Part shown: positions 1 to 16,675 of the stretch, piece by piece
How positions within the stretch are numbered: position 1 is the stretch's first letter
Layout of the letters: each line of letters opens with the position of its first letter
Source: a candidate division FCPU426 bacterium
GTDB lineage: Bacteria; Oederibacteriota; JAAXVQ01; JAUVAV01
Length of the DNA: 18,663 nt
Direction: 5' to 3'
Assembly: GCA_030637655.1 (NCBI GenBank)
Contig: DAOWGI010000042.1
Location: 1 to 18,663 of the forward strand
Notes under the pieces: generated by a model
Seen by the model: only the letters and a program-made list of their open reading frames with translations
Told to the model about the DNA's origin: nothing
Database searches by the model: none
Made by a program: the position numbers and the translations under genes

Positions 1-1
1 C

Positions 2-1165
2 GAGCCTTGGTCAAGTGGTAATCTGGAAGAGACGCTCACAGCAGGCAGAGCCTATTTCTTCGCGCAACAAAGAACACCAGGTGTTGTCCGCTACTTAAGA
101 GCCGAGGATTCGGATGATTCGAACATTAAAGATGAATCTTCTCCGGACAATGCGTGGGGTTTGATACGCGTGGTAGAGGAGAAGGATGTTAGTTTTCATG
201 TTTATGTGGAAGGGGTGGAGGCTGTTGACAATACTCCGGTCGATGTTGATGCCAAACCCAATACCTTTACCATGTATGTTGAAATACGTTATGATGGTAC
301 CGGTGAAAAAGTATCAACTGTGAAGACCTTTCTCATGGAACCTTCATTAACCACAGGAAGCTATACACCGGCCAACGGCACCTTGAATCTGAGATCCGCC
401 AGCACCACAGATGGATACGCGAATTTAACTACTCAGGCGTATGATCTCGCGGAGACGATTTATATTCTGGTGCGCGATGCTTCCGGTTCCGAGGATCCGT
501 CGCCTGGGTATTCGCCGGAAATTCGGGTCCGGGCCTCTGCGCCGGCCAGTATTGTTTTAACCGCTGAAACGGAAGATTCATACCAACTGGCAAATGGAGT
601 AACAGTTTACCAAATAGAAGCCAACGCGAATGCCCGTCTTAATGCGCTTGTTCATGACGCCAATGGGAACGAAGTTGAAAATGCCGCGCTAACATTTGAA
701 ATTGTGAATACACTGAATACTTCAAGCACTTTGGGAGCGCCCAGGTCATTAACTACAAACGCGGATGGAGCCGGTTATGCTACCTTCTTTGCCGGTCCGC
801 AAAATCTCGAACATACGATTCGCGCGTCTGCAGGTTCTGTTTCAACAGAAATAACCATCTTTGTTACAGTAACCAGAGATGGCGGTGTGTATCCAAATCC
901 GTTTAATCCGTTACGTGGAGAGAAAGCAAACATTGACTATAATTTGGAGGAAGATGCATCAATAAAAATTGAAATTTACACACTGCTGGGTGATTTAGTT
1001 TGGACCATAGAGATTCCGCATGCTCATAAGGGCGTGAATTCAACACCCTGGAACGGCAAGAACAATAGCGGAGTTACTGTCGCGAATGGCGGTTATATTT
1101 GCGTCATTAAAGCCAATGATCAAGAGAAGAATCGCTTCAAGATTGGCATTTATAAAGAAAAATAA
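2..1165 (+). CDS. 5'-truncated large surface/secreted protein: bacterial Ig-like (Big_1/invasin-type) domain followed by C-terminal T9SS type-A-CTD-like / FlgD-Ig domain
   Basis: Frame 2 is open from base 2 (EPWSSGNLEETL...) into the tracked ORF, so the TTG at 161 is probably not the true start. Big_1-like motif 'LNALVHDANGNEVENAALTF...TTNADG.GYATF'. The C-terminus from about 890 reads 'YPNPFNP...IDYNL...IKIEIYTLLGDLV...WNGKNNSG..VANGGY...KIGIYKEK', typical of CTD/FlgD-Ig domains. Confidence 0.8.
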   Translation, partial: EPWSSGNLEETLTAGRAYFFAQQRTPGVVRYLRAEDSDDSNIKDESSPDNAWGLIRVVEEKDVSFHVYVEGVEAVDNTPVDVDAKPNTFTMYVEIRYDGTGEKVSTVKTFLMEPSLTTGSYTPANGTLNLRSASTTDGYANLTTQAYDLAETIYILVRDASGSEDPSPGYSPEIRVRASAPASIVLTAETEDSYQLANGVTVYQIEANANARLNALVHDANGNEVENAALTFEIVNTLNTSSTLGAPRSLTTNADGAGYATFFAGPQNLEHTIRASAGSVSTEITIFVTVTRDGGVYPNPFNPLRGEKANIDYNLEEDASIKIEIYTLLGDLVWTIEIPHAHKGVNSTPWNGKNNSGVTVANGGYICVIKANDQEKNRFKIGIYKEK

Positions 1166-1198
1166 GAAAAAACAGCTGGAGAAAGCGGGGATGCGCTC

Positions 1199-2449
1199 AT
1201 GAAAAGAACTCTCACTATATTAATCACCCTTACTGCTTTCGTGGGATTGCTTCAGGGAAATAGTTATGCCGGAGCAGGGGATTATGGTATGCCGGGAGAA
1301 TATCTTGATTATCCCTTTGGCGCGCGTGTCGCGGGTATGGGAGGGGCAAATACCGGTTTGGCGGATGATGTTACAGCGATTTTTAACAATCCGGCCGGAT
1401 TGGCCACTCAGGATCCCATACAGATCGGGTTGCAGCATGTTATGTTATTTGAAGATACTATGTTGGATTTTTTAGGATTCTCTCTGCCGGTAATTAATAT
1501 AGGTCACATAGGTCTGGGTATTGTATTTCTTCATTCATCAGATTTTTATGTGGTAGATGATGGTTACGCGCCTACTTCTGATCATACGAGTTCAATGAGC
1601 AAAGGTTCGGCTTATTTGAGTTACGCGCGTGATATATTTCCCGGCCTCTCTGCCGGAGTAAATGTTAAAGTTGCCTATGAAGATATCTTTGGCCACTCCG
1701 GCACTGGTATTGGAATTGATGTTGGCGGTCTGTACAGTCCCATACCTGAATTCCAGGTTGGAGTGTATGTAAAAAATGCGCTGACACCGCAAGTGCTGGG
1801 TGATATGTATTTTGGTTCTGTTACCCTGGGTGTGGCTGGAAAGCTGTTTAATAATGATTTGCTTTTAGCTGTAGATGTTAGTAAGTCTTTAGGTCCACAA
1901 GATAGTATTTTATGGGAAGTTGGCGGTGAGTTGGATGTATATAATGATATGGCGTTTATTCGCGCCGGCTTGGATGATGAATTAAAGGTTTATCTGGGAG
2001 TTGGCGGTAAATATATGAATATTACTTTGGATTATGCCGCCAGCATTGAAGCTTTGGGTTTGGCGCATAAGATTTCAGCCGGTTATTCCATGGGCGGTTT
2101 TGAAATGAGTGTTCGCGCCACACCGAAGATATTTTCCCCTGTGGGCATAAGAAAAACAACGACCTTCGCAATCAAAGCGGTGTCTAAATATCAAATACGT
2201 GATTGGGAGTTGAATATTAAGGATCAGAACGGTGATATTGTGCGTTCTTATTCCGGGGAAGAGAATCCTCCGAATCAGATCGTTTGGAACGGCAAGGATG
2301 ACAGAGGATTACCGGCGCCTGATGGTAATTTCAGCGCCCAAATGATCGTAACGGATTCAAATGGAAAAGTTATTAAATCAAATTTCGAGTCAGTTAAAAT
2401 TCAAAGCGCTGTTCCACTTGATGGGGAAGGTGGACTGGAGCTTGACTAA
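1199..2449 (+). CDS. PorV/PorQ (UPF0164)-family outer-membrane beta-barrel with C-terminal FlgD-Ig-like domain
   Basis: Signal peptide (MKR-hydrophobic-SYA). Family signature 'GARVAGMGGANTGLADDVTAIFNNPAGLA'. Amphipathic strands such as 'GIGIDVGGLY'. From about 2108, 'PKIFSP...WELNIKDQNGDIVRSYSG...IVWNGKDDRG...PDG'. Confidence 0.85.
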   Translation: MKRTLTILITLTAFVGLLQGNSYAGAGDYGMPGEYLDYPFGARVAGMGGANTGLADDVTAIFNNPAGLATQDPIQIGLQHVMLFEDTMLDFLGFSLPVINIGHIGLGIVFLHSSDFYVVDDGYAPTSDHTSSMSKGSAYLSYARDIFPGLSAGVNVKVAYEDIFGHSGTGIGIDVGGLYSPIPEFQVGVYVKNALTPQVLGDMYFGSVTLGVAGKLFNNDLLLAVDVSKSLGPQDSILWEVGGELDVYNDMAFIRAGLDDELKVYLGVGGKYMNITLDYAASIEALGLAHKISAGYSMGGFEMSVRATPKIFSPVGIRKTTTFAIKAVSKYQIRDWELNIKDQNGDIVRSYSGEENPPNQIVWNGKDDRGLPAPDGNFSAQMIVTDSNGKVIKSNFESVKIQSAVPLDGEGGLELD

Positions 2450-2502
2450 ACCGACTGCTCTCTTAGGGAGCGCTAATTATTGCCAAACAAAGGGGAAAAA
2501 CC

Positions 2503-5500
2503 ATGCTGGGTAAAGCAAAGGGACTCTGTGTACTGTTATTAGGGGTAGCCTTGCTTGGCTTGGGAATGCAACCAAGCTGGGCTGTGGACCTGGAAAAAGA
2601 AAAAATGGCCAAGGAGGCTTGGGATCAGGCAGCGGATACCATGGTCGTGGACTCGCAAGATACCGAACTTCCCGGTATGTGGGAGGAGTATTATAAAAAA
2701 TATTCAAATATGCCCAAGGCTTCCCGCGCCCTGTACATGGTAGCAGAGACTCAATTCCAGCAGCGTTTTTACCAAAAAGCCGGCAAAGCCTATGAAATAT
2801 TCCTGAAAAAATACCCCAATGAGCCTTTTTCCGATTCCGCGGCTTATCGCCTGGGTGAATGCGCTTTTAATCAAAAGGAGTATAAATCAGCCTTATTTCA
2901 ATGGAAAAAATTACTGGGAAAATATCCAGGAACTTTTTTGAAGCCCGAGGCTTTTTACGGACAAATTTTATGTTATATCGTTCAGAAAAAGTGGCGGAAA
3001 GCAGCAGCCGCGATTGAAGAATTGACCCGGCGTTATCCGTACTATCGCAAAGAAAAGAAGGTTAAACTGCCTCTGGGTTTGGTCTATTATCATAACCGCC
3101 AATACAATCAGGCCTTGCAGTATTTTCGCAGCGTGGATGGAGATACGGCTGTTTATTATGTGGGCCGCTGCCTGGAAAATTTAAATCGATTTTTGCCGGC
3201 TGCCGCCAATTATAAGAAAGTGGTGGAGAAATATCCGGATTCCATCTATGCTCTGGATGCCGCTTACAGTAAAGCGGATTCATACTATAAGGGCAGTAAT
3301 TATTCTGTGGCAGATAAAGAATTCAAAAGTTTCTTGAAAAAATTTCCAAGATCCAAGTATCGTCCCTATGCTTTGTACAAACTGGCTGTTTGCCAAATTC
3401 GGCAGGAAGAATATGCCAAAGCCCTGGGCCATTTAGGGATATTGTTGTCCGAAGTAGAGCGTTCCACTTTGGCGGCCAACGCCTATTATTTGAAAGGTGA
3501 GTGTTTACGCCAGACCAAAAAAATGAAAGCAGCGATTATTGCTTACAACCAAGTGGTTAAAGAGTATCCCAACACCTATGTTTCCGGCAGCGCCAAATTT
3601 AAAGCCGGTTGGGTTATGTTGAGCGGCGGGAATTCAAAACAAGCCTTAAAAACCTTTCGTGAGTTTTTAACGACCTATCCAATTCATGAGAATGTGCAAT
3701 TGGCCACCTATTTGCTCGGAAATAGTTACTTTAAGCAGGAATTGTATGTGCAAGCCATTCCGATTTATCAAAATATTCTAATGAAATACAAATATTCGGA
3801 TGTTTCGGACGCGGCTTTGGCAGCTTTGCAAATGGCGTATTTTATTCCCAAGCAGTATGAACAATTGATCTCCACCACCCATTATATTTTAAAAGTCCTG
3901 GCTGCCAATTTTCCGCCATCCAAAAGTACCTGGCGTTCACTATCGTATTTTTACTTGGGCGAGGCCTATTTTCACATGGGCATGTTCCCCCAGTCTGCCG
4001 GGCAATATAAGAAAATTGTCGAGAATTTTTCGGATTCACCGGTTTTGAATTGGGCCAAGCTGGGTTTGACGTACGCGTATTTTGAAGCCGGTAAATTTAA
4101 AGAATCACAACGGGTTGCCAAAGGTTTGGAGACCTCGGAAGATGCTCCGGTTAAGTTGAAAAACTACGCTGCTTTGATGACAGCGCATAATCTGTTTAAC
4201 CGCAAAAAATATGAGGATGCGATTGTAAAATATGAAACATTCGCGAAACTCAATCCCACCATGCCGGAAGCCGGGGATGCCTATTATTACGCAGGGCAAT
4301 CATATTTTCAGTTGGAATATTATGCCAATGCCATTGATTCCTGGCAGCGTGTTGTGCAATATTTTAAGCAGAGTGAAAAAGCGCCGGATGCCGCGTATAA
4401 AATGGGAGATACCTTTTTCAAAGCGCAAAAATACGATCAGGCGATTGCCGCTTATAAAATGTTGAAACAGTGGCCGGAAGAGAGTAATCCTCATCGTAAA
4501 AAAGTACAGTTGCATATCGCCCAATGTTATTACAATGCCAAACAAGATAATCAGGCGATTGCCGCCTACAAAAAATTCATCAATGATTATCCGGATGATC
4601 CCAAAGTCAAAGATGCCATGGAAGGCATTCAATTAAGCTATTACCGCAAGGGTCAGACCTCGGACGCGGTTCCGCAACTCATGGAGTTTGTGGTTAACTT
4701 TCCGAATAGCCGGCTGGCTGTGGACGCGCTTTATCGGGTGGCGGAAATCTATTATCAAGAAAAAAATATGGAGCAGACTATAGCCGCGTTTCAACAATTG
4801 ATCGCCGATTATCCGGAAAGTTCCTTATTACCCAACGCGCAATATTACATTGCCATCTGTAATCAAGATTTGGGGCATCGGGACAAGGCAATCCGTAGCT
4901 ATCAAGCCTTTATTCGCAATTTTCCGACCCACGAATTGGTCGTGGATGTGCGTTTTCGTTTGGGAAGTGGATATTTTGCCAAAGAAGATTATGAGGCGGC
5001 TATTGATGCCTATCAGGCGCTGGTTGATTTGCACGCCAAATCGGAATATGCGGCCAATGCGTTGTACAATGTAGCGCTTTGCTATAAAAAAATGAAAAAA
5101 TGGCGCCAAGCCATTGAGACGTATACTCAATTCTATAAGAAGTTTCCGGATGATCCCAAAGCCAAAGACTGCTTGCTGCAAATTGCGACTACTTATCGCG
5201 ATGAAAAACGGTACCCATCAGCTATCAAAATTTATGAAGAAATGGCAGCCAAAAAAGAGTACCAGGAGGAAAAAGGGGAAATCCTGTATTCTATCGCTGA
5301 TTCCTACATCCAAATGGAAAATAAGGAAGCAGCAACAAAAGCATTTGAACATATGCGGGAATTACGGCCTAAAAACGATGTTTATCGCTTGACGGCCTTG
5401 GCGAAACTAGGTAGTCTTTATGAAGAATTGGAAAAGTGGGGAAATGCCTACGATATCTACAGTGATTTGGGTACTTCCGGTGGCAAACCGGAATGGACCC

Positions 5501-5643
5501 AGGCTGCCAAAAGCCGTTTGTCCATTCTGAAATTAGAACACAAAGCGGAAGTGGCGGCTTTTTTACAGGAAAAAGCAGCAAAAAAAACAACGTCGAAAAA
5601 GAAAATAAAGAAGAAGAAGTCAAAAAAATCTAAGAAAAAGTAA
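2503..5643 (+). CDS. Exported multi-TPR protein (BamD/CpoB-like TPR repeats) with poly-Lys C-terminal tail
   Basis: AGGGG RBS-like site upstream. Sec signal ending in SWA. The TPR pattern 'A.Y.LG..Y.....Y..A...Y......YP.S' repeats along the whole length. Ends KKTTSKKKIKKKKSKKSKKK. Confidence 0.9.
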   Translation: MLGKAKGLCVLLLGVALLGLGMQPSWAVDLEKEKMAKEAWDQAADTMVVDSQDTELPGMWEEYYKKYSNMPKASRALYMVAETQFQQRFYQKAGKAYEIFLKKYPNEPFSDSAAYRLGECAFNQKEYKSALFQWKKLLGKYPGTFLKPEAFYGQILCYIVQKKWRKAAAAIEELTRRYPYYRKEKKVKLPLGLVYYHNRQYNQALQYFRSVDGDTAVYYVGRCLENLNRFLPAAANYKKVVEKYPDSIYALDAAYSKADSYYKGSNYSVADKEFKSFLKKFPRSKYRPYALYKLAVCQIRQEEYAKALGHLGILLSEVERSTLAANAYYLKGECLRQTKKMKAAIIAYNQVVKEYPNTYVSGSAKFKAGWVMLSGGNSKQALKTFREFLTTYPIHENVQLATYLLGNSYFKQELYVQAIPIYQNILMKYKYSDVSDAALAALQMAYFIPKQYEQLISTTHYILKVLAANFPPSKSTWRSLSYFYLGEAYFHMGMFPQSAGQYKKIVENFSDSPVLNWAKLGLTYAYFEAGKFKESQRVAKGLETSEDAPVKLKNYAALMTAHNLFNRKKYEDAIVKYETFAKLNPTMPEAGDAYYYAGQSYFQLEYYANAIDSWQRVVQYFKQSEKAPDAAYKMGDTFFKAQKYDQAIAAYKMLKQWPEESNPHRKKVQLHIAQCYYNAKQDNQAIAAYKKFINDYPDDPKVKDAMEGIQLSYYRKGQTSDAVPQLMEFVVNFPNSRLAVDALYRVAEIYYQEKNMEQTIAAFQQLIADYPESSLLPNAQYYIAICNQDLGHRDKAIRSYQAFIRNFPTHELVVDVRFRLGSGYFAKEDYEAAIDAYQALVDLHAKSEYAANALYNVALCYKKMKKWRQAIETYTQFYKKFPDDPKAKDCLLQIATTYRDEKRYPSAIKIYEEMAAKKEYQEEKGEILYSIADSYIQMENKEAATKAFEHMRELRPKNDVYRLTALAKLGSLYEELEKWGNAYDIYSDLGTSGGKPEWTQAAKSRLSILKLEHKAEVAAFLQEKAAKKTTSKKKIKKKKSKKSKKK

Positions 5644-5666
5644 AATAGTTACTTTAGGAGGGATAC

Positions 5667-6317
5667 ATGGATCTCGGAAATTTGGATTATATTGAAATAT
5701 TCAGGAGTAGTTTTACTTTAATGATTTTGTTGGTCTGCTCGATTTTGGCGGTGGCGTTTATGATCGAGCGCTGGCTCTTTTACCGTAGAGCTAAAGTGGA
5801 TTCTACGCGATTTTTATCAAGAATTAAGATGTCCCTGGAAAACAATAATTTTCAGGAAGCGGTTTCTACCTGTGAACGGGATCGGAGTCCGGTAGCAGCA
5901 GTTTTGCGTGTGGGTTTGCTAAATCGCGCTTTGCCCTATCATCAACTGGATGAGTTGATGCATACCACCCGAGAAGAGGAACGGGTAAAATTAGAGCGCT
6001 ATTTGGGTGTTTTAGGAACACTTGGCAACTCTGCTCCATTTATTGGCTTGTTCGGAACGGTTGTGGGTATTATTAAAGCTTTTCATGATTTGGCTGCTTC
6101 GGGTTCCGGTGGACCGACGGTTGTTGCTGCCGGTATTGCGGAAGCGTTGGTTGCGACAGCTGCCGGTTTGGCTGTGGCTATTCCTTGCGTTATGGTCTTT
6201 AATTACTTCATGCGTAAGGTTAAAAACATTGCCGTGGAAATGGAAGCGGTGTCTAAACGGTATCTGATAATTTTGACCAATCGTGATGTAGAGGCGGCGA
6301 GCGGCAGAAAACGATAA
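5667..6317 (+). CDS. exbB: MotA/TolQ/ExbB proton channel family protein
   Basis: AGGAGG RBS. Three TM segments with 'APFIGLFGTVVGII.AF' and 'GIAEALVATAAGLAVAIP', conserved Thr/Glu intact. exbB versus tolQ cannot be firmly separated; the neighbouring TonB_C protein and absence of tolB/pal favour exbB. Confidence 0.9.
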   Translation: MDLGNLDYIEIFRSSFTLMILLVCSILAVAFMIERWLFYRRAKVDSTRFLSRIKMSLENNNFQEAVSTCERDRSPVAAVLRVGLLNRALPYHQLDELMHTTREEERVKLERYLGVLGTLGNSAPFIGLFGTVVGIIKAFHDLAASGSGGPTVVAAGIAEALVATAAGLAVAIPCVMVFNYFMRKVKNIAVEMEAVSKRYLIILTNRDVEAASGRKR

Positions 6318-6324
6318 ATAAATT

Positions 6325-6537
6325 AGTTCCTGTTGTGGAAAGTCTTTTTTTTACTGGAGTTATGTCATTCCCGCATGGTTTTAGCGGCCCCGACCGGAAA
6401 AGATATATAGGGACGCCTTCGGCAGGAATCCAGAGGCTAAGGTAGGGGCGTGATTAATCGCGCCCCTACAAGATACCCGACAAAATCATTCGGGTATGAC
6501 AATCTTTTCAGAAAACAGTCTTTCCGCAACAGGAACT
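6325..6537. mobile_element. MITE-like composite repeat with 18-bp terminal inverted repeats and nested palindromes
   Basis: AGTTCCTGTTGTGGAAAG (6325-6342) versus CTTTCCGCAACAGGAACT (6520-6537), 17/18 complementary. Inner arms TGTCATTCCCGCATGGTTTT... and ...AAAATCATTCGGGTATGACA. GTAG palindrome in the middle. Confidence 0.65.
6442..6469. repeat. GTAG...CTAC REP-like palindrome
   Basis: GTAGGGGCGTGATTAATCGCGCCCCTAC, 28 nt, one G-T mismatch. Confidence 0.8.
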
Positions 6538-6568
6538 GTTTCGAAATTCTATTTGGGGGTAATTCACC

Positions 6569-7024
6569 ATGGGTATGGGTGGTGGAGATCAGGGAGATTC
6601 TATTACGGAAATTAATGTAACACCATTGGTTGATGTCTGCTTGGTGTTGGTTATTATTTTTATGGTTACCGCGCCAATGGCCATGCAGGCCGGCATTATT
6701 GTGGCCAGCAGCAAGGTGGATGCGGCGGAAGGTCAAGTTTCGCAAAATGAATCCGTTTCTGTGCGCCTAACAGCGGAAAAATTATACTTAAACGATCGCG
6801 TGGTTACCTTAGAATCGTTGCCTGCTCTGATGACAGCGAAATTGAAGGTAAATAAGAAAAAAGTAGTGACTATTACCTCGGATGAGGAGGTAAAACACGG
6901 GATCATGGTTACGGTTTTGGATATTGCCAAACAGAGCGGCGCTGAGGGTTTGTCTATTATGCGGCCACCTAAAATGGGCAAGCTGGATAAAAAGAAGAAG
7001 AAGAAAAGAAGAAGAAGAAGATAA
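6569..7024 (+). CDS. exbD: ExbD/TolR family protein (copy 1) with basic C-terminal tail
   Basis: 'EINVTPLVDVCLVLVIIFMVTAP' with the essential TM Asp. Periplasmic 'V.ITSD....HG.MV.VLD.AK.SG'. Ends KKKKKKRRRRR. Confidence 0.9.
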   Translation: MGMGGGDQGDSITEINVTPLVDVCLVLVIIFMVTAPMAMQAGIIVASSKVDAAEGQVSQNESVSVRLTAEKLYLNDRVVTLESLPALMTAKLKVNKKKVVTITSDEEVKHGIMVTVLDIAKQSGAEGLSIMRPPKMGKLDKKKKKKRRRRR

Positions 7025-7028
7025 ATAG

Positions 7029-7180
7029 TGTAGTGTCTCCAAAATGTGGGTACATTTGATTTTATACTTCTATCGTCATTCCGGCATGCTTTCAGCCGGA
7101 ATCCAGGAGTTTTGAGTCTCTGGACCCCGGCTACAATCATGCCGGGGTGACGGCTGTACCGTTATTTAAGAGACGCTACA
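7029..7180. mobile_element. MITE-like element enclosing a GTCATTCCGG...GGAATCCAG / CTGGACCCCGG...GGGGTGAC double hairpin
   Basis: Outer arms TGTAGTGTCTCCAAAATGTGGGTACA and TGTACCGTTATTTAAGAGACGCTACA (20/26 complementary). Inner palindromic unit at 7074-7152. Confidence 0.6.
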
Positions 7181-7196
7181 ATAGGGGGTAAGTGCA

Positions 7197-7598
7197 ATGG
7201 GTGCTGGAGGCGGCGACAATCCGATCACAGATATTAATGTAACGCCATTGGTTGATGTGTGTTTGGTGCTGGTTATTATTTTCATGGTAACCGCGCCTCT
7301 TTTTAGTCAACCGGTTATGAAAGTGGAACTGCCCAAAGCTACCACTGATGAGGGAGAATCCACTGAAAATATTACCATTACCATTGATCCTGACGAAAAT
7401 ATCGCGGTAAATGCCAAAGAGGTAACGCTGCTTGAATTGAAACCGGAATTGAAAATGAAATTACAGGAAAGTTCTGAAAAATACGTGATTATTCGAGCTG
7501 ATAATCTTACCAATCATGGTATTGTACTTAATACCCTGGATTTAGCCAAGGAATTAGGAGCGAGAAAGCTGGTTTTCGCTACCGAACATAAGGAATGA
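7197..7598 (+). CDS. exbD: ExbD/TolR family protein (copy 2)
   Basis: 'DINVTPLVDVCLVLVIIFMVTAP...V.LPKA' and 'VIIRAD....HG.V...LD.AK..G'. AGGGGG RBS-like site upstream. Confidence 0.9.
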   Translation: MGAGGGDNPITDINVTPLVDVCLVLVIIFMVTAPLFSQPVMKVELPKATTDEGESTENITITIDPDENIAVNAKEVTLLELKPELKMKLQESSEKYVIIRADNLTNHGIVLNTLDLAKELGARKLVFATEHKE

Positions 7599-7602
7599 TT
7601 TT

Positions 7603-8634
7603 ATGGCCATTCGTGTGATTATTGAAGAAGAAGAAAAATTTGCCGCTGATTTTGATATTTCCGGATTGAGTAAGGGTGGTTTTATCTCCCTGTTTGGACA
7701 TGCTTCCGTATTCTTTATGATAGCTATGATCACGCATCAACAAAAAAAAGCGGAAGTCCTGTTGACTGAGATTAGTTTGGTTGATCAGATTATTCCCGTT
7801 CCGGAAGAGGAAGAACCGCCACCGCCGGTTCCGATCGCGCCTCCGGAAGAGAAAAATGTCTGGGATTTCTTAAAACAAGCGATACCCTTAAAACAGAAAG
7901 CGGAATTGGCCAGTCAATTGCCTATTAATTTGCCGAAAAAACAGGACAAACTGGAAATGGCCGCCATGCCGGACGCCCTGAAATTGGGCAGTAAAAAAAA
8001 TCTGGACAAACCAATGATGGGCAAACCGCTGGATTTGGTCGGACGCAAGGCAATGAAACAACCGGCAGGAATGAATATGAATGCTTTAAAAATGAATAGA
8101 CGGAAGGATTCTTTGGCCAGTACCGCCAAATTGCCGTCAGGCATCAGATTAGGCAAGAAGAGCAGCTTTTTGCCGCAGCAACAAAGACCGCTGGTGAATA
8201 CCCAACGTTTTGCCAGGCGTGCCAATCTGCAGGCGCGGGGAGGATCTTTGGCAGATATGCCGACCATAAAAAAACCGATTAAAAAGAAAAAGGTTCAGTT
8301 TGATACCACTAATTTGAAGATTCTGCGGGAGAAAAACACCTTTCAGATTTTTGGTCCTTTGAAGAATCGGCGCAGAATTAAGATTTTTTTACCGCGTTAT
8401 CCCCGCTGGGCGGAAGAACAGGGTATTGAGTGTTCAGTCAGTTTTCACTTGTTTGTATTGCCGGACGGAAGGGTAAAAAATAATTTATATATGGAACAAA
8501 GTTCAGGCTATTCTGAAATAGATAAATTGGCTTTGACGGCATTGAGTAAATTTCAGTTTGTGCCTTTGGGTAGTGGTAAAAAACAGGAAGAACAAGAAGG
8601 TGTTATTGTTTTCTATTTCCGGTTATCGAGGTGA
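7603..8634 (+). CDS. tonB: TonB-family energy transducer
   Basis: N-terminal TM with S-x3-H motif (SLFGH). Pro-rich PEEEEPPPPVP segment. Long Lys/Met-rich linker. TonB_C domain 'PRYPRWAEEQGIE.SV...V.PDG.V......SSGY..ID..AL.A...FQF.P'. Confidence 0.85.
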   Translation: MAIRVIIEEEEKFAADFDISGLSKGGFISLFGHASVFFMIAMITHQQKKAEVLLTEISLVDQIIPVPEEEEPPPPVPIAPPEEKNVWDFLKQAIPLKQKAELASQLPINLPKKQDKLEMAAMPDALKLGSKKNLDKPMMGKPLDLVGRKAMKQPAGMNMNALKMNRRKDSLASTAKLPSGIRLGKKSSFLPQQQRPLVNTQRFARRANLQARGGSLADMPTIKKPIKKKKVQFDTTNLKILREKNTFQIFGPLKNRRRIKIFLPRYPRWAEEQGIECSVSFHLFVLPDGRVKNNLYMEQSSGYSEIDKLALTALSKFQFVPLGSGKKQEEQEGVIVFYFRLSR

Positions 8635-9575
8635 TGAGAATGACTACGCGCATGGGGAAATACCTATTCATTATGCTATTGGCAGGAGTGGTTGCTGTTT
8701 CCACCCAGGCTTTTGCGAAGGATGACAAAGATCAATTGGCAGGTCCGCCGGAAAAGAAAGAAGAGGCCAAAGCGGATGACCAGGATGTGGTTATTCGTGG
8801 TGTGCAGCGCCTGAAAGTAAAAGTGGAAAAACCGGAACCGGATTTGATTTTTGATGTGGATGAAATTGCAGTTCCTTATGTGGTGACCGAGAGCAGTGTT
8901 TTGGATGTTTCGCCGACCTCTATGGCGTATCCTGCCATCTCAGTTCCCGGTGAATTAAAAGCTGAGCAAGCTGCTTCACCGTATATACAACTGTTTCGTC
9001 GTCCCCCAATATTGACCCTAAATCCGCGCTATAAAGGAAATGTCGGTATTGCCAAATGGCGTCTGCGTATTACGGACAGTTTTGGAAACGTATTTAAAGA
9101 TTATTCCGGCAAAAGCTCCTTGCCAAAACGGATTGTGTGGGATGGAAAAGGCAAAGGAAAAAAAGGAATGCTGGATGTAGGGACTTCCTACTCCTATATT
9201 TTTTCCATCATTGATGTGGCTTCCAACCCGACCAGTCATATGGGAAAACCCATTGTATTGGAATCCTTGATGTACGAAAAAGACGGCCTGCTTATTGCCA
9301 AAGTTGTGGCAGATGCGATTTTTGAGAAAAAAGGGCGTAAGACGATTATCAGTCAGAAAGGCAAATTATATTTGAAAGAAGTTGCCGATTTATTAGTCCA
9401 CCATCAGCGATATCCTTTGGTGGTGGAGTCTTATTTTAAAGATGTGGATGATGCGAATTATAGGGGTGAAAAGATTCAGGAATATTTGGCAAAAATGTTA
9501 GTGATACCGAAAAAACGTATACAGATAGTAGCGCGGAAATCGCGTTTGAAAAAATTGGTATTCAAAATAAAGTAG
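8631..9575 (+). CDS. Exported hypothetical protein: TonB-box-like N-terminus, FlgD-Ig-like domain, degenerate OmpA_C-like domain
   Basis: The GTG start overlaps the tonB stop (GTGA), but the true start may be a nearby ATG. Signal peptide ending in AFA. 'DVVIRG' at 8784-8801. 'WRLRITDSFG...YSG....P..IVWDGK'. C-terminal 'F.......LKEVADLL......VVESY......RG..I.EYL....IP..RI' resembles the OmpA_C pattern without GHTD. Confidence 0.7.
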   Translation: MMRMTTRMGKYLFIMLLAGVVAVSTQAFAKDDKDQLAGPPEKKEEAKADDQDVVIRGVQRLKVKVEKPEPDLIFDVDEIAVPYVVTESSVLDVSPTSMAYPAISVPGELKAEQAASPYIQLFRRPPILTLNPRYKGNVGIAKWRLRITDSFGNVFKDYSGKSSLPKRIVWDGKGKGKKGMLDVGTSYSYIFSIIDVASNPTSHMGKPIVLESLMYEKDGLLIAKVVADAIFEKKGRKTIISQKGKLYLKEVADLLVHHQRYPLVVESYFKDVDDANYRGEKIQEYLAKMLVIPKKRIQIVARKSRLKKLVFKIK

Positions 9576-9619
9576 GGGCGTATTGCAATACGCCCCTACA
9601 GGCGTATCGCGATACGCCT
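9572..9619. repeat. Tandem REP-like palindromes
   Basis: Perfect 28-nt GTAGGGGCGTATTGCAATACGCCCCTAC (9572-9599) directly followed by perfect 20-nt AGGCGTATCGCGATACGCCT (9600-9619). Confidence 0.85.
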
Positions 9620-11614: not shown

Positions 11615-11642
11615 AGTATTATTATCAAAATTAAAAATCAGC

Positions 11643-11751
11643 AACCACGGATGAACACCGATTAACACGGATTTTAAAAGCTGTTTCATCATATTTATTG
11701 TTTTTGCATTTTTTAGACCTTATCAGTGTTTATCCGTGTTCATCTGTGGTT
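11643..11751. repeat. Long inverted repeat with 10-bp internal periodicity (AACAC.GAT type)
   Basis: AACCACGGATGAACACCGATTAACACGGAT (11643-11672) versus ATCAGTGTTTATCCGTGTTCATCTGTGGTT (11722-11751), 26/30 complementary, with an AT-rich loop. Confidence 0.8.
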
Positions 11752-11800
11752 ATTTAGGTTTTTAAAGGGTTTAATAGGATGGTAAGGAGGGTAGTACAGC

Positions 11801-13000: not shown

Positions 13001-13041
13001 GCGCTTACAAATGAAATTCTTTACAAAAATGGAAAGAAAAT

Positions 13042-13134
13042 TAACCGCCGATGAACGCAAATAAACGCAGATATTTATAGCCTAATGGATAAAAAAGATT
13101 TTAATTTGCGTGTATCCGCGTGTATCGGCGGCTA
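13042..13134. repeat. Second long inverted repeat of the 10-bp-periodic family (AACGCAGAT variant)
   Basis: TAACCGCCGATGAACGCAAATAAACGCAGAT ... ATTTGCGTGTATCCGCGTGTATCGGCGGCTA. It is followed by TTTGGTTCCGGTTTGTCCGGGTTAGG, possibly the end of another repeat. Confidence 0.75.
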
Positions 13135-13174
13135 AATTTGGTTCCGGTTTGTCCGGGTTAGGGAAGGTGAAATA

Positions 13175-16101: not shown

Positions 16102-16107
16102 GAATGT

Positions 16108-16136
16108 ATTTTATTTCTAAATGCATAAAATTGCAA
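16108..16136 (-). promoter_or_regulatory. Putative sigma70 promoter for the kinase gene
   Basis: Minus strand TTGCAA - 17 nt - TAAAAT, then 6 nt before the ATG. Confidence 0.55.
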
Positions 16137-16256
16137 GGACAGCTATAAGAAAAATTGCGCACGGTCCTGTTTTCCTCCAGTTGCAGCCGGGTGTCATTCA
16201 CGACCGAGCCAATGAGTTCATGACCATCTTGACCACCACTAACAGACAGCAGGGAA

Positions 16257-16281
16257 GTAGAGACGCGATTAATCGCGTCTC
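16257..16281. repeat. GTAG-family REP-like palindrome
   Basis: GTAGAGACGCGATTAATCGCGTCTC. The core 16260-16281 is a perfect palindrome and the right CTAC end is degenerate. Confidence 0.75.
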
Positions 16282-16345
16282 GTAAGCATAGCGGGTTTAA
16301 TTTGGATCATAGCCGGTCGGTAAAGATGTAAATGATACCAAAAAC

Positions 16346-16374
16346 GTAGAGACAAGGCATTGCCTTGTCTCTAC
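16346..16374. repeat. GTAG...CTAC REP-like palindrome
   Basis: GTAGAGACAAGGCA-T-TGCCTTGTCTCTAC, with perfect 14-bp arms. Confidence 0.85.
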
Positions 16375-16495
16375 TTAAGCATTTACGGCTTTGGTCTGAA
16401 CCTGCACTTGCACCAGCTACAGCTCGTGGTTCACCGGAATCCGTCATTCCGGATAATATTTATGAGCCATTTTATGATAACATCCAGCGCAATCC

Positions 16496-16586
16496 CGAAG
16501 AGTGTTAGCAGGGGACGTTGGTTAGTTGTCTAGTTGATATTTAGTTGACAAATGGACAACAAAGCAACGTCCCTGTAAGACTTTCG
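16496..16586. repeat. Long imperfect hairpin
   Basis: CGAAGAGTGTTAGCAGGGGACGTTGGTTAGTTGTCTAGTTG ... CAAATGGACAACAAAGCAACGTCCCTGTAAGACTTTCG. The arms are complementary apart from a few bulges and mismatches. Confidence 0.65.
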
Positions 16587-16675
16587 TGTTCAGCACAAAA
16601 ATGTGGGACAGGGTAAGTTTTTCAAAGGGGGAAGAATGCTTAAAACCTGCTTTTGTGCCTAAGTCCGACAGGCTC

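Follow-up and report, generated by a model that had tools for sequence, protein, structure and literature searches.

The first eight genes of contig DAOWGI010000042.1, from a candidate division FCPU426 bacterium (assembly GCA_030637655.1), are on balance best read as one functional unit, a dedicated proton-driven envelope machine for one giant surface-type protein. The eight open reading frames (ORFs), here called g1 to g8, occupy positions 2-9575, all on the + strand. They encode, in this order, the tail of a giant exported protein ending in a sorting-type C-terminal domain (CTD), a PorV/FadL-type outer-membrane barrel, a long exported tetratricopeptide-repeat (TPR) protein, one ExbB, two ExbD paralogues, a TonB-type transducer, and an exported protein built of an immunoglobulin-like (Ig) and an OmpA/MotB-like domain. 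The reading is based on the parts and their families, on the conserved gene order, on paralogous clusters in the same genome, and on one fusion of the barrel to the TPR protein. The window analyzed is the entire contig (C107, 18,663 bp) of a genome, G000 below, which measures 3.28 Mb in 120 contigs and is 91.55% complete. Its closest named relative is a metagenome-assembled genome (MAG) labelled Candidatus Firestonebacteria. The 11 DNA runs listed for window positions 1-9600 are cold-seep, marine-sediment or unspecified metagenomes, and no RNA run is listed for this stretch.

Reviews describe type IX secretion (T9SS) as a Bacteroidota system dependent on the PorLM motor and on the PorKN ring. 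In the uncultured phylum to which G000 belongs, a SprA-like translocon is found alongside CTD-tailed proteins and PorV-like barrels, both by the dozen, and PorK/L/M/N and PorU go undetected. In about half of the genomes, moreover, a complete TonB-type motor is linked to a single giant protein with a CTD tail and to the barrel of that protein. Should this coupling be real, it would be a new route by which inner-membrane energy reaches an outer-membrane surface protein, would make a short motif in g8 a tractable candidate for how that energy is delivered, and would sharpen the question of what powers SprA-type translocons outside Bacteroidota.

Components of the gene train

Between consecutive genes, from g1 to g7, lie 33, 53, 23, 251, 172 and 4 nt, and g7 and g8 overlap by 4 nt. 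The ORF coordinates thus agree with a preliminary description of this DNA, which had noted eight co-oriented genes with short gaps or overlaps; Pfam and NCBIfam scans likewise bear out its statement that no TonB-dependent receptor, TolB, Pal, PorK/L/M/N or SprA is encoded in the window.

The motor genes match their Pfam families over cut-off. g4 scores 113.6 bits against MotA_ExbB (PF01618), g5 and g6 score 83.5 and 101.7 bits against ExbD (PF02472). g7 is made up of a transmembrane helix with an S29-x3-H33 motif, a linker first Pro/Glu-rich and then Lys-rich, and a TonB_C domain (PF03544, 42.9 bits, cut-off 24.6). The gene preceding them, g3, matches TPR families and, in 12 stretches that together score 373 bits, the YbgF/CpoB model. 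Among NCBIfam models the best match of g4 is TolQ (140 bits, cut-off 221), and that of both g5 and g6 is TolR (68 and 89 bits, cut-off 127).

The latter matches are the starting point for an explanation in terms of envelope integrity, in which g4 to g6 would take the parts of TolQ and TolR, and g7 that of TolA. In this scheme g8, with its OmpA-like domain and N-terminal docking motif, would combine Pal and TolB, g3 would correspond to an unusually large CpoB, and the barrel and the giant protein would form the anchor by which the outer membrane is tethered and constricted. The CpoB-like repeats of g3 and the OmpA/MotB-like fold predicted for g8 suit such a Tol-Pal-like role, as does the genome: no canonical tolQRA-tolB-pal cluster was seen in G000, and its only TolB-like ORF (contig C65, 151.6 bits, cut-off 343) is not beside a TolQ homologue. 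All TolQ and TolR scores, however, fall under the family cut-offs; a profile of g7 orthologues matched TonB structures only (13 of 13 matches to PDB sequences, none to TolA), and no TolA match was obtained for g7 itself; g8 has no lipobox Cys; and Tol-Pal includes no counterpart of either the giant protein or the PorV-like barrel. Moreover, the operon is found in three copies in G000 and is absent from about half of the phylum, which is odd for a housekeeping division system. We consider a Tol-Pal-like role rather unlikely.

No Pfam or NCBIfam family was matched by g8. Its AlphaFold2 (AF2) model has a mean predicted local distance difference test score (pLDDT) of 73, rising to about 90 at residues 128-313, and shows a β-sandwich followed by an OmpA/MotB-like domain; structural matches found by Foldseek include MotB-like 3khn, PA0833, YiaD, OmpA_C domains, MotY and FlgD. 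The best-conserved segment of the protein lies in the N-terminus, which is predicted to be disordered (pLDDT <50), and fits the pattern [DE]-[VI]-[VIT]-[VI]-[KRT]-G-x-x-[KR]-[LIV]-K-[VI]. Group conservation is 0.76 at residues 50-66, against 0.31 at residues 30-49 and 0.55-0.66 elsewhere. We take this motif to resemble the TonB boxes of E. coli receptors. A complex prediction for g7 residues 235-343 and g8 residues 30-135, each with its own alignment, gave scores of 0.00 and 0.00, and speaks neither for nor against binding. The last protein had been described as TonB-box/FlgD/OmpA-like, which stands at the level of predicted fold and conserved motif; a family match was not obtained, and the motif is a candidate binding site.

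The motif is kept in L118, a locus from an Endomicrobiales-labelled MAG. At L118:4826-7906 (- strand) the TPR/exbB slot hosts a 1,027-aa exported protein without a barrel, in which about eight repeats of the FlgD-Ig/CHU_C-like type are accompanied by a canonical OmpA_C domain. In five genomes labelled Calditrichales, Latescibacterota, Poribacteria, Zixibacteria and Elusimicrobia no full-length g8 match was found; there were two partial matches.

The CTD-like cargo of the preliminary description is confirmed as far as its tail is concerned, which matches FlgD_ig at 45.4 bits (cut-off 27), the only CTD-type model passed. The ORF, though, is merely the last 387 aa of a giant protein; the gene is cut by the contig end, and about 1,550 N-terminal aa were not assembled in G000. 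Intact g1 orthologues at loci with the full gene order are 1,787-1,941 aa long (2,043 aa at the variant locus L024), carry signal peptides, and consist of Big_1-like Ig domains and the tail, with almost no other recognizable domain. Searched by sequence against solved structures, g1 gave one weak match (4ei0, E 0.005). Contig C65 also starts inside a giant CTD-protein gene, paralogous to g1 and entered at an equal offset; positions 164-529 of the window and of G000:C65 are 43.5% and 44.3% identical, respectively, to the same part of the orthologue in the relative G016. That two contigs begin inside paralogous giant genes indicates that the assembly breaks within these repetitive genes.

g2 scores 85.6 bits against PorV_fam (cut-off 90) and 31.5 bits, over cut-off, against UPF0164; its C-terminal FlgD_ig domain scores 34.1 bits. 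The best Foldseek matches of the AF2 model (pLDDT 78) are 6h3i_F and 8gl6_F, both Type 9 translocon entries (E 1e-8, template-modelling score 0.62), and FadL and TodX rank behind them. Chain F of either entry is presumably PorV. By analogy, the CTD-like g1 tail is probably retained at the outer membrane by the g2 barrel.

The similarity of g2 to the FadL and TodX substrate channels also brings TonB-energized uptake into consideration, with the barrel importing a substrate that the giant protein captures. TonB systems normally import, and no plug-type receptor is found nearby. FadL-type channels are not known to require TonB, which counts against this explanation. Further, the TonB-box-like motif resides in g8, none being found in the conserved mature N-terminus of g2, and having a barrel paired with a CTD-tailed protein is characteristic of T9SS-type systems (PMC9143113). 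Uptake is very unlikely.

Conservation of the linkage

Sixteen orthologous neighbourhoods were fetched from the phylum with g8 as a specific marker. Ten of them, belonging to six families (f1, f2, f7, f10, f12 and f17), contain all eight genes in identical order: CTD-tailed giant protein, barrel of about 420 aa, TPR protein of 1,028-1,097 aa, ExbB, ExbD, ExbD, TonB and g8. Two more (f2 and f18) show the same order and are cut by contig ends. Across the loci the identity of g8 to the window drops to 24-29%, and the rib genes found downstream are kept in f1 and f2 only. Clusters of the same composition reside on contigs C29 and C7 of G000, and upstream of each of the three two-ExbD clusters in this genome lies a pair of CTD protein and barrel. 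Five genes for Plug-domain receptors were found genome-wide in G000 (contigs C57, C38, C4, C64 and C112), none beside the three clusters.

The operon is also found complete in a record labelled Spirochaetia (L039). In a record labelled Clostridia, L046:9935-14002 is a single 1,356-aa ORF in which residues 31-323 form a barrel and residues 365-1356 a g3-type TPR protein, the two joined by a Glu/Lys-rich linker, the Ig domain of the one and the signal peptide of the other being missing. As judged from its sequence, this ORF is a Rosetta-stone fusion of the barrel and the TPR protein.

The preliminary description had allowed that a common exbB-exbD-exbD-tonB-TPR cluster might lie beside a cargo-barrel pair by accident. 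With 48 barrels in 3.28 Mb chance proximity is conceivable, and the core of the operon is found without barrel and giant protein in two Elusimicrobiota MAGs. Given the order shared by strongly diverged loci, the paralogues in G000, the barrel-TPR fusion and the complete operon in L039, such an incidental juxtaposition is extremely improbable; by gene content and order, the linkage of the eight genes is not incidental.

Cargo-barrel pairs

Barrels and CTD-like tails were counted with hidden Markov models (HMMs) built for this analysis. In G000 they detect 48 ORFs for PorV-like barrels and 73 whose products end in a CTD-like domain, in keeping with the expectation that CTD-bearing proteins would be many. 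As many as 30 of the 48 barrels are located at most 700 nt downstream of a CTD-tailed ORF on the same strand; by shuffling, the mean was 1.2 and the maximum 6 in 1000. In 13 of the 48, FlgD-Ig repeats are followed by a canonical OmpA_C domain. A search seeded with the g2 alignment found 79 barrel loci in many phyla, and in 58 of them, some labelled Calditrichia, Elusimicrobia, Zixibacteria, Ignavibacteria and Poribacteria, a CTD-tailed ORF lies just 5' of the barrel. From both counts it follows that a cargo with its own barrel is a general module. At G000:C65:2149-8130 a TolB-like ORF is immediately followed 3' by an ORF of 829 aa with a CTD tail and by a barrel ORF of 680 aa.

The type IX core and the distribution of the operon

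SprA-like ORFs were found in 58 of 61 phylum genomes, and in eight of the nine of the same family as G000. They are about 1,750-2,330 aa long where intact, and score only ~70-127 bits per segment. In G000 no SprA was found, either with TIGR04189 or by tblastn with the SprA-like proteins of two relatives; as the gene is present in nearly all of the phylum and of the family, and G000 is incomplete, its absence is probably an assembly gap. A location just past the end of the contig is unsupported, the last three genes of the window having no counterpart in G040, where a SprA-like gene is about 4.5 kb away from the orthologue of the histidine kinase gene of the window.

The other T9SS components were monitored in G000, in the relatives G016 and G040 (both 100% complete) and in two Bacteroidota controls (G071 and G076). 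No GldL or GldM match over cut-off (TIGR03513, PF12081) was found in G000, G016 and G040, nor with PF12081 in G008, while the controls score 150-241 bits. GldN (PF19841) was not found in G000, G016 and G040 either (controls 222-248 bits). GldK (TIGR03525) is over cut-off in none of the 61 phylum genomes (controls 597-599 bits), 20 of which show partial matches of the FGE-sulfatase type, at most 89 bits. In both controls GldK/L/M/N form a contiguous operon, all matches falling at 150-599 bits. Full-length PorU (NF033707) was not found in G000 or in G001-G003 (G003 being G040). A full-length match, at 953 bits, was obtained in the Ignavibacteriae control only; the model has 34 matches in G000, and those listed all fall in the CTD part, at model positions 962-1095. 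Failure to detect PorKLMN may reflect divergence beyond these HMMs.

The Ignavibacteriae-labelled MAG (G004; loci L005, L006 and L010) has SprA at 539 bits along with the PorU mentioned, and no match to GldK, GldM or GldN; an assembly gap may account for this, or else a T9SS whose PorKLMN is not recognizable.

The preliminary description had suggested a hybrid or ancestral T9SS-like apparatus in which a TonB motor takes the place of PorLM. A canonical porKLMN set elsewhere in the genome, combined with no conserved linkage of barrel and motor genes, would have been the contrary pattern; porKLMN is undetected, and the linkage is conserved. In the broadest version of the idea ExbB-ExbD-ExbD-TonB would be the general motor for all FlgD-Ig/CTD-tagged proteins. 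The translocon must be powered somehow, and the numbers of CTD-tailed ORFs and barrels in G000, the SprA-like gene in most genomes, and the lack of GldK/L/M/N and of full-length PorU in the genomes searched are all in line with this explanation. The distribution of the operon is not. Full-length g8 orthologues, which mark it, are found in ~28 of the 61 genomes (30 at E <= 1e-8, two of them partial matches), SprA-like genes in 58, and GldK shows no complementary pattern, being over cut-off in none; the operon cannot, therefore, be the general energizer of CTD export in the phylum. It also counts against the explanation that PorKLMN may have been missed through divergence, SprA itself being matched by low-scoring segments only.

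What other genomes contain instead was monitored with a TonB profile in five near-complete genomes lacking g8. In four (f6, f9, f9 and f11) the best match resides in a different cluster with a single ExbD (L120-L123), made up of a TPR protein of about 1,000 aa, a 530-625-aa ORF, ExbB, one ExbD and TonB, the four belonging to families that lack the window-type operon; the fifth, G005, has a TonB match of 27 bits only. The same single-ExbD layout is found at G000:C1:1442-11123 (L015), where the 598-aa ORF weakly matches TonB_dep_Rec_b-barrel, with no Plug domain seen. This TPR cluster may be a phylum-wide system. That every operon includes its own conserved giant protein points to the two-ExbD operon being a dedicated system. 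It looks like a lineage-restricted, dedicated elaboration rather than the general partner of SprA. A wholesale replacement of PorLM is unlikely, and we do not read the operon as the general T9SS motor of the phylum. Of the earlier suggestion, the abundance of CTD proteins and barrels and the failure to detect GldK/L/M/N or PorU stand; the role of general motor does not.

A proposed mechanism

In the favoured reading, a dedicated machine for one giant protein, ExbB and a heterodimer of the two ExbD paralogues would turn proton flow into movement of g7. The latter would span the periplasm and dock, through strand addition by its C-terminal domain, on the N-terminal motif of g8, a putative Ig and OmpA-like periplasmic protein. 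The long TPR protein g3 would sit beneath the PorV-like barrel g2, and g2 would hold the tail of g1 in the way PorP/SprF-type barrels hold type-B CTD proteins in Bacteroidota. The force of the motor would thereby be passed to the pair of barrel and giant protein, and might serve export or assembly, release, or the moving or re-shaping of the giant protein on the surface. To cross the outer membrane itself, the giant protein probably depends on the SprA-like translocon found in the phylum.

Several observations weigh against this reading. The tail of g1 passes neither T9SS sorting-domain cut-off, scoring 21.6 bits against TIGR04183 (cut-off 23) and 21.2 against Por_Secre_tail (PF18962, cut-off 27), and CHU_C is likewise missed (20.8, cut-off 27). 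At four of the 16 loci the full order is not kept. L024 and L038 feature the giant protein and barrel followed by ExbD-(ExbD)-TonB-g8, with the TPR protein and ExbB not located between barrel and ExbD; L037 consists of TPR-ExbB-ExbD-ExbD-TonB-g8, barrel and giant protein being undetected; in L023 only ExbD-ExbD-TonB-g8 was detected. In the two Elusimicrobiota-labelled MAGs the core has the layout TPR-(Ig-repeat OmpA protein)-ExbB-ExbD-ExbD-TonB-g8, and neither barrel nor giant protein is found in the 8-11 kb fetched upstream, which means that coupling to the T9SS-like pair is not obligatory. The OmpA-like domain of g8 is too divergent for the canonical OmpA HMM, and its peptidoglycan-binding residues are unconfirmed; the contact of TonB with g8 is proposed from the motif. 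Finally, the two repeat insertions inside this copy of the operon may affect its expression.

Comparison with known systems

We regard the operon as a variant of known motor-coupled envelope systems; it fails defining features of each. In T9SS, precedent is found in triads of a CTD protein, its cognate barrel and a wall anchor of the OmpA_C type, such as PorE-PorP-PG1035 and SprF-SprB (PMC9143113); type-B CTD proteins pair with PorP (SprF), and PorE can tie the pair to the cell wall (PMC9143113; PMC12618676). As these triads are described there, the likeness is in the CTD-tailed, often giant, protein encoded directly 5' of its own barrel, in the periplasmic OmpA_C-type partner and in the involvement of TPR modules; the G000 barrels that carry OmpA_C in the same polypeptide add to it. 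In contrast, the operon barrel is of the PorV/FadL type, the tail is FlgD-Ig-like and under the type-A and type-B CTD cut-offs, a full ExbB-ExbD-ExbD-TonB motor is part of the unit, and PorK/L/M/N and PorU are undetected in the genome.

Ton systems share with the operon ExbB, ExbD and TonB_C, all matched over Pfam cut-offs, the S-x3-H motif and transmembrane Asp, and a TonB-box-like motif on a partner. They differ in that the operon has two ExbD paralogues and no plug-domain receptor, that its candidate TonB box lies on the soluble Ig/OmpA-like g8, and that a PorV-like barrel together with a giant protein serves as the partner in the outer membrane. As for Tol-Pal, stators scoring best against TolQ/TolR, a periplasmic OmpA-like protein and CpoB-like repeats are shared. 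TolB docks on TolA by an N-terminal motif, and docking of g8 would resemble that. The below-cut-off stator scores, the TonB-like sequence of g7, the lack of TolB in the cluster, the non-lipoprotein nature of g8, and the multi-copy, patchy occurrence of the operon set the two apart.

The Agl-Glt core complex of Myxococcus is encoded by aglR, aglQ, aglS, gltD, gltE, gltG and gltC, and the core has no known function in non-gliders (Luciano et al. 2011, PMC3169522). By composition the match is partial: both assemblies are clustered and combine one TolQ-like and two TolR-like proteins, a TonB-like transducer and a TPR protein of ~1,000-1,200 aa. Going by the core as set out in that paper, GltG has an FHA domain, which g7 has not, equivalents of GltC and GltE are not found in the operon, the barrels of Glt resemble OmpA or autotransporters and not PorV, and no CTD-tailed giant protein figures among the Glt components. 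That energy from ExbB/ExbD/TonB can serve to export a protein through the outer membrane is illustrated by Oar-dependent secretion of PopC in Myxococcus (PMC6434023). Oar is a plug-type TonB-dependent transporter, and the operon has none.

Tentatively, and at odds that we put well short of even, the operon may stand for an undescribed class of proton-driven machine, in which a Ton/Tol-type stator and TonB arm act, through an Ig/OmpA adaptor bearing the TonB-box-like motif and a giant TPR scaffold, on a T9SS-style barrel and giant protein, driving export or release, or surface movement of a gliding-like or adhesin-tensioning kind. Such a class, if true, would connect the motors of the Ton/Tol/Agl-Glt family with the outer-membrane toolkit of T9SS, in lineages with a SprA-like translocon and no PorK/L/M/N or PorU detected, components regarded as essential to type IX secretion. 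Literature searches, from which supplements were left out of scope (those of Luciano 2011 may list related clusters), found no published description of the operon.

Coordinates, repeats and neighbouring genes

The features of the gene train are collected in Table 1, together with examples of SprA-like loci and of cargo/barrel expansion.

Table 1. Features of the g1-g8 operon and loci used as examples; positions without a prefix refer to the window.
Feature	Position	Strand	Description
g1	2..1165	+	C-terminal 387 aa of giant exported CTD-tailed protein; from Pfam/NCBIfam and orthologues
g2	1199..2449	+	PorV/FadL-type outer-membrane barrel (residues ~30-310) and C-terminal FlgD-Ig (~320-400)
g3	2503..5643	+	1,046-aa exported TPR protein; signal peptide ends SWA|V
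g4	5667..6317	+	ExbB/TolQ-type proton channel; MotA_ExbB PF01618
g5	6569..7024	+	ExbD paralogue 1; transmembrane Asp kept
g6	7197..7598	+	ExbD paralogue 2; transmembrane Asp kept
g7	7603..8634	+	TonB-type transducer; TonB_C
g8	8631..9575	+	exported protein: signal peptide, disordered N-terminus, FlgD-type Ig, OmpA/MotB-like domain
TonB-box-like motif of g8	8784..8834	+	g8 residues 52-68
MITE-like insertion, exbB/exbD1 gap	6325..6537	.	213 bp, 26-nt inverted repeats 6325-6350 / 6512-6537
GTAG palindrome	6442-6469		nested in first MITE-like element
Second dispersed-repeat insertion, exbD1/exbD2 gap	7025..7196	.	33-nt hairpin at 7074-7152
GTAG...CTAC REP palindrome	9572..9599	.	28 nt; overlaps g8 stop codon, end of gene train
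SprA-like locus L008 (example)	G040:C2:6679-13212
SprA-like locus L009 (example)	G029:C4
Cargo/barrel expansion (example)	G000:C39:64519-67499
Cargo/barrel expansion (example)	G000:C98:38000-40596
Cargo/barrel expansion (example)	G000:C117:20542-23339

Dispersed repeats occupy both large gaps of the operon; in G000 blastn finds 100 matches to the first and 42 to the second. The preliminary description had called them miniature inverted-repeat transposable elements (MITEs), and the first, bounded by inverted repeats, is indeed a MITE-like insertion. The same two gaps measure 45 and 41 nt in the relative L004, where the repeats are absent. The poly-Lys/Arg tail of g5 was considered as a possible contribution of the adjoining repeat; since the repeat begins at the last base of the stop codon, it is not the source of the tail.

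A strict σ54 -24/-12 pattern was found 5' of g1 in none of 11 relatives. Scans gave 24 promoter-like sites against 19.2±3.7 in shuffled sequence, and 17 terminator-like sites against 12.6±3.8, neither number being clearly above expectation. The operon is followed 3' by riboflavin genes, an aminotransferase and a histidine kinase gene. Members of the dispersed families, both MITE-like elements and GTAG repetitive extragenic palindromes (REP), are also found at window positions 11615-11800, 13001-13174 and 16102-16675.

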